From the NCBI GenBank assembly GCA_963726745.1, contig CAVSDR010000003.1:480001-544000 (forward strand): 64,000 nucleotides of DNA. Direction: 5' to 3'. Under the pieces are notes generated by a model, which ran no database searches, had not been told where the DNA came from, and was given only the letters and a program-made list of their open reading frames with translations. Each line of letters begins with the position of its first letter. Position 1 is the first letter of the stretch. Shown here piece after piece: positions 4,383 through 60,173 of the stretch. Position numbers and translations under genes: made by a program. Source of the DNA: an uncultured Verrucomicrobiae bacterium (GTDB lineage: Bacteria; Verrucomicrobiota; Verrucomicrobiia; Chthoniobacterales; UBA10450).

Positions 4383-4559
4383 ATGATCAAACGCGTCCTC
4401 GTTCGTTGCCCCTCCACCGCCAAGCTCACGCCCACCGGCCAGACCGTGGACGAGGAACATTGGGAAACCACCAAGCTCAAGGCCCCCAAGAAACTCGAGT
4501 GCCCTCACTGCCAGGGAACGCACGAGTGGACTAAGAAGGACGTCGTCCTCGCTCGTTAG
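4383..4559 (+). CDS. Small zinc-ribbon-like protein (58 aa; not in the ORF track)
   Basis: Translated by hand: MIKRVLVRCPSTAKLTPTGQTVDEEHWETTKLKAPKKLECPHCQGTHEWTKKDVVLAR*. C...CPHC..H pattern; genome-typical codon usage. Confidence 0.75.
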   Translation: MIKRVLVRCPSTAKLTPTGQTVDEEHWETTKLKAPKKLECPHCQGTHEWTKKDVVLAR

Positions 4560-4627
4560 GCAGCGCTTTCGCCGAGAGCGGGATTGACCGCCGCGCTGCC
4601 GCTTGCTTAGATCAAGCCGAACGCGCC

Positions 4628-5078
4628 ATGGCCAAGCAGCGCAAAACCGCGGCGGCTTCCCCCGCCGATGCCCCGAAGACGGAAAACGCCTTCGACGCTG
4701 GCCGTGAAGTGGCCGGCAATTTCTTCCGCGAAGCCGAGGATGCCTCGCCGAAATTAGTCGACGAGATCATGGCCCTGCGGCGCGATTATCTCCGCGCCTG
4801 GTCCGAGGGCGTCGGCTCCTGGCTCGATTTCGGCGAAGAGGTGCTCGAGAAGCTTAACGTCCGCCCGCAGAGTCTCCGCCGACATGAAAAACATGGCCCG
4901 CGACCTCACCGAAGGCTGGCTCAAAGCCGAGGCGGAAGTGCTGCAAAACGCCCTCGGCGTTTCCCGCTCGCTCGTCCAGGCCGCCGCCGCCGGCTCCCAG
5001 GCGCTCAACGCCGCCGGCTTTCGCGCCACCCTCTCCGCGGTCGACCTCGTCCGCGCCCGCGAAACCAAGAACGGCTGA
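4628..5078 (+). CDS. Helical hypothetical protein (phasin-like character), probably one gene split by a 1-base insertion at ~4855-4880
   Basis: Frame from 4628 is protein-like up to EKLN; the +1 frame continues SARRVSADMKNMARDLTEGW...ETKNG*. TTGACC-N18-TAGATC promoter-like sequence upstream. Confidence 0.5.
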
Positions 5079-5095
5079 CGACCCCGCGCTGATCC

Positions 5096-55915: not shown

Positions 55916-57175
55916 CTAGTGGAACTGCTCTTCCTCGGTCGAGCCGGCCAGCGCCGCGGTCGAACTTTGCCCGCCGCTGATCACCTGCGCGACCTCGTCG
56001 AAGTAACCCGTGCCGACTTCGTGCTGGTGCTTCGTCGCGGTATAGCCCTGAGCCTCGGCGGCAAATTCCTCCTGCTGCAACTCGGAGTAAGCCGCCATCC
56101 CGCGATCGCGATAGCCGGCCGCAAGCTTGAACATGCTGTAGTTGAGCGCGTGGAAGCCGGCCAGGGTGACGAACTGGAATTTGAAGCCCATCGCCCCAAG
56201 CTCGCGCTGGAACTTCGCGATCGTCGCCTCGTCGAGCTTCGCCTTCCAGTTGAAGGAGGGTGAGCAGTTATAAGCCAGGAGCTTGCCGGGAAATTTTGCC
56301 TGCACTTTCTCGGCGAATTTCTTCGCCTCCGCGAGGTCCGGCTTCGAAGTCTCGAACCAAAGCAGGTCCGCGAACGGCGCATAGCTCAGCGCCCGCGCGA
56401 TCGCCTGCTCGATCCCGGCGCGCACGTGGAAGAAGCCCTCGACCGTGCGTTCGCCTTTGATCACAAACTCGTGGTCGCGCTCGTCGACATCGCTCGTGAG
56501 CAAGGCCGCGCCGCCGGCATCGGTGCGCGCGATCAGGATCGTCGGGACATTGGAAACATCCGCCGCCAGCCGCGCCGCGGTCAAATTCCCGATCGCGGTG
56601 CGCGTCGGCACGAGCACCTTGCCACCCATGTGGCCGCACTTTTTCTCGCTCGCGAGCTGGTCCTCGAGGTGGACCCCGGCCGCGCCGGCTTCGATCATCG
56701 CCTTGATCAATTCGAAGACATTCAGCGGCCCGCCAAAACCGGCCTCGGCATCGGCCACGATCGGCGCGAACCAATCAATCCCACTCCCGCCCTCGGCATG
56801 CGCAATTTGGTCCGCACGCTGCAGCGCCTGGTTGATCCGCCTAACGACTGCTGGGACGCTGTTTGCCGGGTAGAGGCTTTGGTCGGGATACATCTGGCCG
56901 GCTAAATTCGCGTCCGCCGCGACCTGCCAGCCGCTCAGGTAGATCGCCTTCAAGCCCGCCCGCACCTGTTGCACCGCCTGGTTCCCGGTGAGCGCGCCGA
57001 GCGCGTGCACGTAGGGCTCGGAGTGGAGCAATTGCCAGAGCTTCTCCGCGCCGCGGCGAGCGAGCGAATGCTCGGGCACGAAGCTGCCTTGCAGTCGCTG
57101 GACATCAGCTCGCGCGTAGGTGCGCTCGATGCCCTGCCAGCGCTTGTCGGTGGACCAATCAGTCGAGTTTTTCAT
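55916..57175 (-). CDS. aceA: Isocitrate lyase
   Basis: [44 protein letters not shown]. Confidence 0.98.
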
Positions 57176-58745
57176 AGCCAGGGAGAGTGAGGAATTCCGC
57201 AAAGTCATCGTCGGTCGTGATCCGGTCGAACAGCTCCCGCGCGTCTTCAAAACGGTCGCCTTCAAAGCGTTTCACCCGGCCGAGTTCCTCGGCGAGCACG
57301 CTCCGGAAAAGCTCCTTCGTCACCTTCCGCCCGTCATCGAGTTTGCCTTCGGGATGGCGAATCCATTGCCAGACCTGCGCGCGCGAGATCTCCGCAGTGG
57401 CGGCGTCTTCCATCAAATTAAACAGCGGGACGGCGCCGCTCCCGCGCAGCCACGCTTCGAGGTATTGCACCCCCACGCTGATGTTCTGCCGCAGGCCGGC
57501 CTCGGTGATCGGGCCGCTCGGGCCAAAGTCCAACAAGTCGTTAGCCGACACTTTCACCTCGGCGCGCGCGCGGTCGATTTGGTTCGGCTCGGGCATCGCC
57601 GCGTTGAAAGCCTCGAGCGCGAGCTGGACCATGCCGGGGTGCGCCACCCAGGTGCCGTCGTGCCCGTCGGCCGCCTCGCGCTCCTTGTCGGTGCGCACCT
57701 TGGCAAAGGCGGCCGCGTTCGCGGTCTCGTCGTTTTTCACCGGGATCTGCGCGGCCATGCCGCCCATCGCGAAGGTCTTGCGCCGGTGACAGGTCTGGAT
57801 GCAGAGGAGCGAATAGGAATGCATGAAATGCGTCGTCATCGTGATCAAGCCGCGGTCGCCTAACAAGAAGTCGGGCTTGTTCCGGAAACGCTTGATGCAG
57901 GAGAAAATGTAATCCCAGCGGCCGCAGTTCAGCCCGGCGGAATGCTCGCGCAGCTCGTAGAGAATTTCGTCCATCTCGAAGGCGGCCGGGATGGTCTCGA
58001 TGAGCACGGTCGCGCGGATGGAACCTTGCGGCAGACCCAGTTCCTCCTGCGCGAGCCGGAAGACGTCGTTCCAGATTCGGGCCTCGAGATGGCTCTCCAT
58101 CTTCGGCAGATAAAAATACGGGCCGCTCCCGCGCGCGCGCAGTTCCTGCGCGTTGTGAAAGAAGTAGAGCCCGAAGTCGAAGAGCCCGCCGCTGACCGGC
58201 GCGCCATCGACCAGGAGGTGCTTCTCCACCAGGTGCCAACCGCGCGGCCTAACGAGCAAAGTCGCTGTCTGTTCCTTGAGGCGGTATTCTTTCCCCGCGG
58301 GATTGGTGAAGCTGATCGTGCGCCGAATGGCATCGCGCAGATTGATCTGCCCCTCGACCATGTTTTCCCACGTGGGCGAGTTCGCATCCTCGAAATCGGC
58401 CATGAACATTTTCGCGCCGGAGTTGAGCGCGTTGATCACCATCTTGCGATCGGTCGGGCCGGTGATCTCGACGCGGCGATCGCGCAGGTCGGCCGGGATG
58501 GAGGCGCAGGTCCAGTCGTCTTCGCGGATCGCTTTGGTTTCCGCGAGGAAATCGAGCGTGCCGCCCGCGTCGAGCATCGCCTGGCGTTCCTGCCGACGCT
58601 CGAGCGCTTCGCGGCGGCGGGCATCGAAGGCGCGATGCAACTTCGCGACGAAGGCGAGCGCCTCCGGCGTGAGGATTTCCGCAAAGCCGGGACGGAGCGC
58701 GCCGCGCACTTCAACGCCGGGAGGAAGCTTGGGATCGTGAGCCAT
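57159..58745 (-). CDS. aceB: Malate synthase A
   Basis: [56 protein letters not shown]. Confidence 0.97.
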
Positions 58746-58835
58746 AGGTTCACTAACGAATCGCCTGCGCCGGAGTCTTCGCGCTCATCTGCATCCCGTT
58801 TGGCGAGGCGCGCAACCTTGCGTATGCTCGCGGCC

Positions 58836-60173
58836 ATGAAGCTTCGCCTCCTTTTCGTGGCCGCGCTCGCGCCCGCGCTCTCCACCTTCGCCCAGCAGAC
58901 CCCGCAACAGATCGCGGAGGCGGAGTTGCCCTCGCTCCTCACGATCTACAAGGATCTCCATGCGCATCCGGAATTGTCCGGGCATGAGGAGAAATCTTCT
59001 GCGCTGATCGCGAAGGAACTGAAGGCGCTCGGCGTCGAGGTGACGGAGAAGGTGGGGAAATACGAAAAGCCGGGGAGCGTTCCTTTCGGTGTCGTGGGCG
59101 TGATGAAGAACGGCGCCGGCCCGACCGTGCTCGTGCGCACCGATATGGACGCGCTCCCGGTAGAGGAGGAAACCGGCCTGCCCTACGCGAGCAAGGACAC
59201 GGCGAAGAACGACGAAGGCAAGGAAGTAAAAGTGATGCAGGCCTGCGGACACGACATTCACATGTCGTCGTTTATCGGCGTAGCCCGCGCCCTTGCGAAG
59301 CTGAAGGATCAGTGGAAAGGGACGATCATTTTCGTGGGACAACCGGCGGAAGAACTCGGCACCGGCGCCCGCGCGATGCTGAACGACGGCCTCTACACCC
59401 GCTGGCCAAAGCCGGATTTTGCCATCGGATTTCATGACAAGGCCGACCTGCCCGCGGGGAAAATCGGCGTGACCGAAGGCTACACCTACGCGGCGGTGGA
59501 TTCGGTCGACGTGACCGTGCACGGCATCGGCGGCCACGGCGCCTACCCGCACAAGACGAAAGACCCGGTGGTCATGGCGGCGGAGATGGTCATGCTCTGG
59601 CAGACGATCGCCTCCCGCGAAAACAACCCACTCGACCCCGTGGTCGTAACCGTCGGCTCGATCCACGGCGGGACGAAGCACAACATCATTTCCAACGAAG
59701 TGAAGATGCAGCTGACGGTGCGCACTTATAAGAAGGAAGTGCGCGACCGGGTGCTGGCTGCGATCGCGCGGATCGCCAAAGGCGTAGGTGTCGCCGCCGG
59801 CCTGCCGGACGACAAGCTCCCGCAAGTGACGGTGCGCGAGGGCGAGTTTACACCTGCGACTTACAACAATCCCGAGCTGACCAAGCGCCTCGTGGCCGTG
59901 TGGAAGAAGTCGTTAGGCGCGGACAACGTCGAGATGGTCGATGCGACCATGGGCGGCGAGGATTTCTCGGAGTATAGCCTGCCGGATCACTCCATCCCGG
60001 CGGTAGATTTTCACGTGGGCGCGGTCGCACCGGAAACGATCGCCGCCGCGCAAAAGAACGGCACTTCGCTTCCCAGCCTGCACTCGAGCAAATTCGCGCC
60101 CGTGCCCGAGCCGACCATCCGCACGGCCGTGATCGGCGTGACCGCCGCGGTGCTCGACTTGATGAAAAAGTAG
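58836..60173 (+). CDS. Secreted M20D amidohydrolase
   Basis: LH.HPELS..E, RTDMDALP, ACGHD.H, QPAEE, G.GGHGA.PH, MGGEDF, LHS. Confidence 0.92.
   Translation: MKLRLLFVAALAPALSTFAQQTPQQIAEAELPSLLTIYKDLHAHPELSGHEEKSSALIAKELKALGVEVTEKVGKYEKPGSVPFGVVGVMKNGAGPTVLVRTDMDALPVEEETGLPYASKDTAKNDEGKEVKVMQACGHDIHMSSFIGVARALAKLKDQWKGTIIFVGQPAEELGTGARAMLNDGLYTRWPKPDFAIGFHDKADLPAGKIGVTEGYTYAAVDSVDVTVHGIGGHGAYPHKTKDPVVMAAEMVMLWQTIASRENNPLDPVVVTVGSIHGGTKHNIISNEVKMQLTVRTYKKEVRDRVLAAIARIAKGVGVAAGLPDDKLPQVTVREGEFTPATYNNPELTKRLVAVWKKSLGADNVEMVDATMGGEDFSEYSLPDHSIPAVDFHVGAVAPETIAAAQKNGTSLPSLHSSKFAPVPEPTIRTAVIGVTAAVLDLMKK

Follow-up and report, generated by a model that had tools for sequence, protein, structure and literature searches.

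A nine-base word iterated through the genomes of one family of soil Chthoniobacterales has the sequence of an integron attC terminal box

The stretch of DNA considered here (the window) comprises 64,000 nucleotides, positions 480,001 to 544,000 of contig C3 of G000 (3.41 Mb in seven contigs, 64% GC), a metagenome-assembled genome (MAG) of a soil bacterium of the order Chthoniobacterales (Verrucomicrobiota). Its gene content is that of ordinary housekeeping DNA, and distributed through it, both within genes and between them, is a non-palindromic nine-base word, GCCTAACGA, which differs from its own reverse complement and is referred to below as the 9-mer. In its sequence this word equals a terminal box of the attC sites of the lineage's own integrons, and its identity, its spread and its possible reader are the subject of this report. 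An earlier sequence-only reading of the window had listed 26 copies of the word; every coordinate, together with the 16:10 split between strands, was reproduced by the 26 matches to the shorter form CCTAACGA (16 forward, 10 reverse), for which 0.77 would be expected, in keeping with the earlier estimate of less than one, and none of 100 shuffles reached 26. The statement that 24 of the 26 extend to a longer form was also correct, as 24 copies of GCCTAACGA (14 forward, 10 reverse) were counted against 0.26 expected and a maximum of 2 in 100 shuffles. The window holds 15 one-mismatch 9-mers; among the ten such sites listed earlier those at 3921, 6224, 22733, 37011, 41292, 45784, 52561, 57538 and 57858 stand, but there is no one-mismatch copy at 58752.

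In the whole of G000 the 9-mer occurs 1312 times (681 forward, 631 reverse) where a Markov model of order 3 predicts 19.7, which ranks it second among all 9-mers, and its extension GCCTAACGAG, with 820 copies, is the top-ranked 10-mer. A genome-wide comparison with a codon-aware null, which had been proposed as a check on the original observation, gave 947 copies inside called genes (the gene calls being rough and based on GC3) against 20.5 +/- 3.2 in 20 synonymous-codon shuffles, and within these genes the word accounts for 15.5% of TTA codons and 16.9% of CTA codons. Around it the conserved bases are G at +9 (0.62), T at +10 (0.43) and A/T at +13 (0.70), with nothing past about 11 bases, and since flank conservation stops at those few positions the 9-mer is not part of a longer mobile element. 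The four peptide readings and the use as a stop codon that had been described were all seen in window genes (for example, GCC-TAA ends the gene at 7156-8181). Over the genome as a whole the 1312 copies are read as S-L-G in antisense (432), L-T (224), P-N-E/D (200), V-R in antisense (85), a GCC-TAA stop codon (76) or an antisense frame with TAG that reflects gene ends or miscalls (54), the remaining 241 being intergenic by the rough gene calls. The 9-mer thus occupies both orientations and every stop-free frame: it is a real signal at the level of DNA and not of protein or RNA.

The route by which copies arise can be seen at the fructose-bisphosphate aldolase site (window 39210), for which 80 loci were compared and 39 aligned without gaps, the other 41 being dropped because of gaps or missing cover. 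The 9-mer is present in 10 of the 39 and the synonymous GCCTGACGA in another 10 (CTG/CTA), with the residues C-L-T-N kept, and this shows that the word is made by single-base, mostly synonymous substitutions. Along the genome its distribution is near-uniform (18.9 copies per 50 kb, variance 23.9), and at short range copies avoid each other: pairs closer than 100 bp reach only 0.24 of the expected density, those at 100-200 bp 0.42 and those at 200-300 bp 0.75, with ratios of 1.0-1.2 at longer distances. The avoidance applies to direct, convergent and divergent pairs alike and there is no such dip for control 8-mers, so that each copy sits in a zone of 250-300 bp that is poor in other copies. 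The longest tract free of the word, at 49.3-85 kb of contig C7 (49300-85007; GC 0.58), is a polysaccharide or O-antigen-type cluster that encodes glycosyltransferases, a Wzy-like protein, DegT, an ABC transporter and a surface protein of 1870 residues; exchangeable accessory DNA lacks the 9-mer.

The identity of the word is provided by contig C6 of the same genome, where 14 full units of about 122 bases, spaced 236-1719 bases apart, lie at 736.5-745.3 kb (736302-745300). All 14 start with RYCTAACGAG (RYCTAACGAGAACAAGATGAGCGAC) and end with GGTTAGR (GTTCGCTCCATCGCNTGGTTAGR), and they fold with the terminal boxes paired, an unpaired spacer and a long stem with bulged bases; across 20 sites from five genomes, 10 of 26 pairs are compensated by changes on both sides. 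By their anatomy these units are integron attC sites, because the paired terminal boxes, unpaired spacer and bulged stem match what is described in an excerpt of one study, namely L and R boxes, an AAC triplet, extra-helical bases and an unpaired central spacer (PMC12614218). Between genomes the middle of the site shows unusual conservation. In general an attC site forms a bulged hairpin some 60-140 nt long, and cassettes separate the sites of an array. A profile built from the C6 sites gave 24 attC matches in G000, made up of the C6 array and pairs on contigs C2, C3 and C4, and the cassettes of these arrays measure 236-1719 bases. Rfam contains no family matching the C6 array, which is taken to mean that it holds no attC model. 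Given the class defined, in an excerpt on IntegronFinder, as clusters of attC sites lacking an integrase (PMC4889954), and with no integrase over the cut-off in G000, the attC clusters of G000 belong to that class.

Read in the other orientation the 9-mer is CTCG|TTAGGC, and alignment by sequence shows it to be the integrase-binding core box GTTAGGC joined to the first three bases of the spacer. The consensus of attC boxes is RYYYAAC/GTTRRRY; the word fits it, equals the terminal box of the lineage's own attC sites and holds the AAC/GTT triplet, where integrases cut. Apparently the 9-mer is also a box of attI. The array end that is, or formerly was, next to intI reads CCTAAC-GAGAA-TTAGA, G076 has GTCTAACGAGAATTCGG 145 bp from intI, and the intI-side array ends consist of two inverted boxes about 5 bp (4-5 bp) apart, the spacing at which an excerpt of PMC12614218 describes the two inverted boxes of attI. 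If the layout is the classical one, the cassettes being read in the direction away from intI, the box flanked by CGAG would be R', the crossover box. The same arms stand next to integrase genes in seven of nine relatives sampled, the filter having found none in G055 and G089. Homologous attC sites number 23 in G024, 30 in G083, 11 in G068 and 3 in G146, none were found in G030, and in G028, which belongs to another family, all nine word copies, at two loci, sit in attC sites. On these sequence matches, integrons with such attC sites are common across the order Chthoniobacterales.

The great majority of copies are a different matter, since 1301 of the 1312 in G000 lie outside attC arrays and none of those in the window belongs to an attC site: their flanks are unconserved, they lack both L box and hairpin, and no convergent copy lies within 50 bp of them. 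The spectrum of variants outside the arrays is drive-like, with GCC-CTAACGA at 1301 copies (19.3 expected) followed by GGC (240), CCC (134) and GAC (123), and with no copy at all of the ATC and CTC variants, for which 12.6 and 9.0 are expected. The first of these absent forms, ATC-CTAACGA (ATCTAACGA), is the box variant of 7 of the 14 main-array attC sites, and because it has no copy outside the arrays the genome-wide reader would be narrower than attC usage. The sequence-only reading had offered uptake, recombination or methylation, or a nucleoid protein as possible mechanisms; a system that reads the sequence stands, but the identity with the integron box had been missed and no mechanism had been chosen. 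What is new here is that, by sequence, the genome-wide 9-mer equals the integron attC terminal box. Literature searches found nothing linking uptake words with attC sites, the one paper retrieved being on Ssn nucleases (PMC11893778); on Chthoniobacterales integrons they found only two beta-lactamase surveys, on uptake sequences in Verrucomicrobia only unrelated papers and, among the matches listed for the 9-mer string, only primers and oligonucleotides in unrelated work. The earlier remark that no such motif had been described for this lineage agrees with these searches.

The genome-wide spread, at some 100 to 4300 copies per genome, is limited to one family. All 24 genomes sampled from the same genus are enriched, with 138-2412 copies each, and so are most of the 30 genera of the family, whereas 16 genomes from 15 other families of the order have 1-19 copies, below the reversed-word control. 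The earlier claim of a lineage-specific signal at the DNA level, with a signature like that of known uptake sequences, stands. In a survey of 151 family genomes in 30 genera, each at least 80% complete and with three or four genomes flagged as unpublished (G001, G008, G045, G155) included in the tallies, density ranged from 0.004 to 1.36 per kb, exceeding 0.1 per kb in 72 and falling below 0.03 per kb in 12. The richest genera are g37, g18, g30 and g38 (G083 carries 4336 copies in 3.2 Mb), and background levels were found in genus g21, in G059 (genus g35, 13 copies) and in G068 (genus g44, 60 copies). Lineages differ not only in abundance but in the word itself, as the sister genus represented by G068 has its own word, (C)AAGATCGACA(W), with 109 copies on both strands of 400 kb against 2.7 expected. 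A link between this word and the L arm of attC (CAAGATCAGCGAC) is not claimed, the two being alike but not identical and the word having 0 and 2 copies in two attC loci. Other over-represented words were noted in passing: CAAGATCGACAW is strong in G068 (C1:1-400000), ATGGAACTCG has 30 copies against 2.8 expected in 200 kb of G028, and GTCATCCCGAGC has 11 copies in 87 kb of G146. Candidate words in G028, G146 and G059 are only weak or repeat-derived, and in 200 kb of G030, from another family, there was no strongly over-represented word.

An important consideration is whether the integron gave rise to the genome-wide word or the reverse. Integron integrases were scored with TIGR02249 against its curated cut-off of 265 bits, which was exceeded in 93 of the 151 family genomes (27 of the 30 genera at E <= 1e-30), in 11 of the 16 genomes from other families and in none of 14 control genomes; most of the non-enriched families therefore have an integrase. 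In G000 no gene exceeded the cut-off, the best being two Xer-like recombinases with 80 and 71 bits against the 265 required, and all that was seen of an integrase is a remnant of 37 residues (C2:58736-58894) next to the C2 attC pair. G059, by comparison, has an intact integrase and an array, and 8 of its 13 word copies are in the integron locus. Intact integrases of the family are encoded, for instance, at C5:81295-82257 of G059 and at C3:1178320-1179261 of G127. Because the word is found almost only inside attC sites or the integron in G028 and G059, and because integrases occur in non-enriched families, the integron box is older than the genome-wide spread and an integron is not sufficient for that spread. 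Within the family the median density is 0.114 per kb where an integrase was detected and 0.078 per kb where it was not (Mann-Whitney p = 0.005), and at genus level density and integrase are correlated with a rho of 0.58 across 15 genera, related genomes not being independent in either comparison.

G000 also has a second word, S-A-W-N-K-Y-GYYGGCTAA-W-T, of which there are 479 copies as GCTGGCTAA, 899 as GCTGNCTAA and 1139 as GYYGGCTAA. Its copies occur within genes, on either strand and with no polarity, and it is close to species-specific: G015 has 127 copies, the unpublished G045 has 136, and none of the other 148 genomes has more than 49. It represents half of the palindrome GYYGGCTAA-W-TTAGCCRRC, of which there are 16 full sites, 8 of them inside genes, and it shares G-N-CTAA with the 9-mer, of which it is spatially independent. 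No arrays or repeated elements are formed by it, 837 of 899 copies having no similar flank and no clusters being found.

The 9-mer calls for a drive and not for selection site by site, because more than 1000 substitutions have gone against codon preference, and biased DNA uptake with recombination is the drive favoured because it is the sole one described that gives such a signature. We tentatively prefer, at somewhat less than an even chance, an explanation in which a molecular drive like that of uptake sequences, tuned to the integron box, spreads the 9-mer. The terminal box would originally have been confined to attC sites and would have left the integron in one family, where alleles carrying the word would be copied into genomes more often than alleles without it. 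If uptake, or a later step of transformation, were tuned to the box, DNA from kin, and especially the gene cassettes of kin with the word in their attC sites, would be favoured for import, of which the copies across the genome would be a by-product. A connection between uptake and integrons is plausible because, according to an excerpt of PMC12614218, the chromosomal integron of Vibrio cholerae acquires cassettes from single-stranded DNA that enters the cell by natural transformation, with an integrase that favours attC sites of its own type. G000 encodes ComEC, DprA, a ComEA-like open reading frame (ORF), three secretins, a PilB/GspE-type ATPase, PilM-like proteins, pilins, type II secretion/pilus genes and 11 prepilin-like ORFs, as well as tandem pilins of 131-134 residues at 155-158 kb of contig C5 with relatives 56-63% identical in other families. 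ComEC was found in 143 of the 151 family genomes at any word density, word-poor genera included. Competence genes being near-universal, gene content is permissive only and neither supports nor tests an uptake explanation.

A number of observations weigh against it. All members of the family are uncultured MAGs and the uptake bias is inferred from their sequences; a search of gene content revealed no uptake receptor for the 9-mer, and neither the tandem pilins, which other families share, nor the near-universal ComEC sets the family apart. The exclusion zone of less than 300 bp is shorter than the fragments usually assumed in uptake. If two words served a single uptake step they would be expected to avoid one another, so the lack of mutual exclusion between the second word of G000 and the 9-mer (ratios 1.0-1.2) also counts against it. 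Inverted pairs of the DNA uptake sequence (DUS) are common as terminators in Neisseria, and no pairs of that type are found here, with 0 convergent pairs of the 9-mer within 50 bp in G000. Density is higher where an integrase is detected, so the integrase itself could matter, and the coincidence of an uptake bias with the integron box is explained only by hypothesis. An extension of the uptake explanation, which we regard as rather doubtful, is that the family turned the integron box into a genome-wide tag of self. Import would be tuned to the box, the cassettes of kin would arrive pre-addressed and isolated boxes would be half-sites for new attC sites and cassettes.

The alternative that survives best, itself improbable in our view, dispenses with uptake and has the 9-mer read directly by the integron integrase, or by another tyrosine recombinase, as an isolated double-stranded half-site, whether a mini-attI or an attG-like site for docking, landing or titration. 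Copies would then build up by selection or by some conversion coupled to the recombinase. A recombinase arm site would be well served by 9-11 bp, the 10/10 match to the attC end extends to the array ends at or formerly at intI, and an excerpt of a preprint describes integrases inserting cassettes at double-stranded genomic attG sites (10.1101/2022.09.11.507474). The second word, as half of a longer inverted site with 16 full palindromes, could be viewed in the same light. The association of density with integrase detection also points this way, but it has to be set beside the 11 of 16 genomes from other families that exceed the integrase cut-off with only 1-19 copies, beside G059, where an intact integrase and array accompany few copies outside the integron locus, and beside G000, G024 and G083, which are 91-95% complete and have 1312-4336 copies with no integrase found. 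A direct reader of attC boxes is also difficult to reconcile with ATCTAACGA, used in half of the main array and absent elsewhere; no mechanism is known to us through which a recombinase would write its own site by point substitution, and more than 1000 insertion targets in housekeeping genes should be harmful.

It seems distinctly unlikely that a different sequence-specific system uses the 9-mer as its site and that the resemblance to the integron box is coincidental or indirect. The candidates would be an abundant DNA-binding protein that organises the chromosome or a modification or repair activity converting near-matches, as has been proposed for the cyanobacterial word HIP1 (GCGATCGC). The near-uniform density and the orientation-independent exclusion zone could be the footprint of a protein, substitution has spread the word within genes as for HIP1, and the second word in G000 and the different word in G068 indicate that word systems turn over. 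Yet a random 10-mer would match a 122-base site on either strand with a probability of about 2 x 10^-4 by our own arithmetic, and the match here is at the functional end; a density range of some 300-fold among genera of the family would be odd for a structural role, and neither the word nor its core is palindromic as HIP1 is. HIP1 has been linked in the literature to methyltransferases. In G000 a screen of all ORFs by motif pattern, which can miss genes, and then by Pfam turned up just three genes for DNA methyltransferases, namely a split N6_Mtase, a truncated HsdM and a C5 methylase, and it gave no support for a methylation-driven origin. The one public run that covers part of the stretch, with a 0.13 share of its words, consists of short soil contigs, and the fragments they yielded were uninformative about modification and about strain polymorphism at the word.

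A polar recombination or segregation signal, like Chi or the FtsK-orienting polar sequences (KOPS), would suit the length of the 9-mer and its frequency, roughly one copy every 2.6 kb, both within the range of Chi, but it is ruled out by orientation: the strands carry 681 and 631 copies, forward minus reverse counts in 69 bins of 50 kb have a dispersion of 73.8 where 69 is expected without polarity, and orientation is uncorrelated with GC skew or gene strand in G000, as the sequence-only reading had anticipated in calling the word not strongly polarised. A by-product of composition or of codon or peptide usage, or an artefact of assembly or basecalling, for which nothing speaks beyond the general risk attached to MAGs, is refuted by the synonymous shuffles, by the use of four readings, stops and intergenic sites, and by presence at lineage-specific levels in all 151 family assemblies, which come from many projects and different assemblers.

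Amongst known systems the 9-mer most resembles, on many counts, the uptake signal sequence (USS) of Pasteurellaceae and the DUS of Neisseriaceae. These too are non-palindromic words of 9-12 bases that recur hundreds to thousands of times in a genome, much more often than expected, in both orientations and in several frames within genes, with an origin by point substitution and an excess of one-mismatch variants. They likewise characterise whole families, with differences in abundance between lineages and a different word in a sister lineage, are depleted in accessory DNA and are accompanied by general competence genes. ComP is the DUS receptor in Neisseria. No ComP-like receptor was identified here; the 9-mer differs further in belonging to uncultured soil bacteria of the phylum Verrucomicrobiota, in lacking inverted terminator pairs, in the identity of the word with an integron box, for which USS and DUS have no known parallel, and in the second, independent word of G000. 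With integron attC, attI and attG sites the 9-mer shares the conserved box GTTAGGC/GCCTAAC and the adjacent three spacer bases, but unlike attC sites its copies outside arrays lie inside housekeeping genes as single boxes; attG sites, in the excerpt of the preprint cited above, need only GWT and are not over-represented words (10.1101/2022.09.11.507474). HIP1 resembles the 9-mer as a highly iterated, clade-specific word within genes, spread by substitution and without an established function, and differs in being a palindromic 8-mer, whereas the 9-mer is not palindromic and matches an integron box. Chi and KOPS, likewise over-represented, are 8-mers that DNA-processing machines recognise, as may be the case for the 9-mer, but they are strongly co-oriented with replication. 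The NTS repeats cut by Ssn nucleases in Neisseria are, in an excerpt of PMC11893778, repeated many times in the genome and read by a dedicated, sequence-specific factor that influences natural transformation, such a reader being only proposed here; they are hairpin-forming, about 30 bp long, clustered around certain genes and adjacent to ssn, and as there described are not bare 9-11-mers in coding sequence.

To our knowledge, sequence-specific uptake words come from only two proteobacterial families. If the uptake explanation is true, the 9-mer would be a third case, in abundant uncultured soil Verrucomicrobiota, and would show that the phenomenon is general. Its identity with the integron box would link natural transformation, or some other copy-biased process, with cassette traffic, and these two gene-exchange systems were not known to be linked. 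The integrase becomes a concrete candidate reader that could be tested in vitro without culture, and there is a handle on two open questions, how the sequence of an uptake word is chosen and how attC sites and cassettes originate. On a practical level the word is a marker by which core DNA of these MAGs can be told from recent acquisitions, with clusters of it flagging integron arrays.

The copies in the window, the starts of the second word and the attC loci of G000 beyond the C6 array are given in Table 1.

Table 1. Word copies in the window (window positions) and additional attC loci in G000 (contig positions)
Feature	Position	Strand	Context
9-mer GCCTAACGA(G)	4553..4561	-	intergenic (rough gene calls)
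9-mer	5329..5337	+	DUF362 gene 5096-7159, P-N-E
9-mer	8176..8184	+	its TAA is the stop of epimerase gene 7156-8181
9-mer	8691..8699	-	where ORFs 8185-8697 (+) and 8694-9983 (-) end; TAA is the stop of the minus ORF
9-mer	9652..9660	-	gene 8694-9983 (-), P-N-D
9-mer	11092..11100	+	aldehyde dehydrogenase gene 11006-12556, P-N-E
9-mer	11564..11572	-	antisense in aldehyde dehydrogenase gene, S-L-G (TTA codon)
9-mer	12545..12553	-	antisense, final codons S-L-G of aldehyde dehydrogenase gene
9-mer	17279..17287	+	biotin/lipoate ligase-family gene 17002-17604, L-T (CTA codon)
9-mer	18008..18016	-	glycosyl transferase family 3 (Glycos_transf_3) gene 17580-18656 (-), L-T
9-mer	20311..20319	+	HAD hydrolase gene 19712-20449, P-N-E
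9-mer	20969..20977	-	LysM gene 20572-21528 (-), P-N-E
9-mer	25759..25767	+	intergenic
9-mer	28933..28941	+	antisense in ParA-like gene 28546-29325 (-), S-L-G
9-mer	30708..30716	+	antisense in gene 29322-31478 (-), S-L-G
9-mer	31358..31366	+	antisense in gene 29322-31478 (-), V-R (AGG codon)
9-mer	39210..39218	+	fructose-bisphosphate aldolase gene 38723-39703, C-L-T-N
9-mer	40737..40745	+	intergenic
9-mer	54314..54322	+	antisense in family-B DNA polymerase gene 53717-55858 (-), S-L-G
9-mer	55303..55311	-	family-B DNA polymerase gene, L-T
9-mer	55669..55677	-	family-B DNA polymerase gene, L-T
9-mer	56839..56847	+	antisense in isocitrate lyase gene 55916-57265 (-), V-R
9-mer	58247..58255	+	M20 peptidase gene 57942-60173, P-N-E
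9-mer	59910..59918	-	antisense in M20 peptidase gene, S-L-G
One-mismatch copy CCCTAACGA	6622..6630	+	8-mer core intact
One-mismatch copy ACCTAACGA	6874..6882	+	8-mer core intact
Second word GCTGNCTAA, starts	3918, 4556, 6817, 8173, 8694, 14011, 14209, 18413, 19472, 22362, 25977		
Second word GCTGNCTAA, starts	28295, 28471, 30705, 30765, 31158, 38893, 44649, 46747, 47001, 52453, 53846		
attC locus	C2:58981-60494		
attC locus	C3:633144-634737		
attC locus	C4:24533-25436		
attC locus	C4:150074-151066		

Several minor features of the window and of G000 were also recorded. A gene for a DUF4130 and uracil-DNA-glycosylase-family protein adjoins a radical SAM gene with a weak HHH_3 match (window 25803-28533, minus strand), the two resembling a conserved putative DNA-repair or modification pair, and a family-B DNA polymerase gene with three copies of the 9-mer is present in this bacterial chromosome (53717-55858, minus strand). 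A C39-peptidase ABC exporter with two cyclic-nucleotide-binding domains (95-3268, minus strand) and a lantibiotic-dehydratase-like gene beside a ParA-like ATPase (29322-31478, minus strand) may represent a peptide natural-product locus. At the other end a very long ORF, of 1821 residues by gene call, runs on the plus strand from 60444 past the window end at 64000, with atypical GC at the three codon positions of 0.55, 0.56 and 0.73, and the last 4 kb of the window have a low GC content of 0.608. Elsewhere in G000 tandem runs of the hexamer GCCAAC give rise to 12- to 14-mers, which number about 142 and show a strong strand skew by bin, and at C4:371575-372988, near a contig end, the gene for the truncated HsdM, a type I methylase, precedes a fragment of the gene for DarT, a thymidine ADP-ribosyltransferase acting on single-stranded DNA. 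The soil contigs that cover part of the window end at 20523, in sequence resembling the start of a tRNA gene, and the gap at about 20450-20572 may hold a tRNA.

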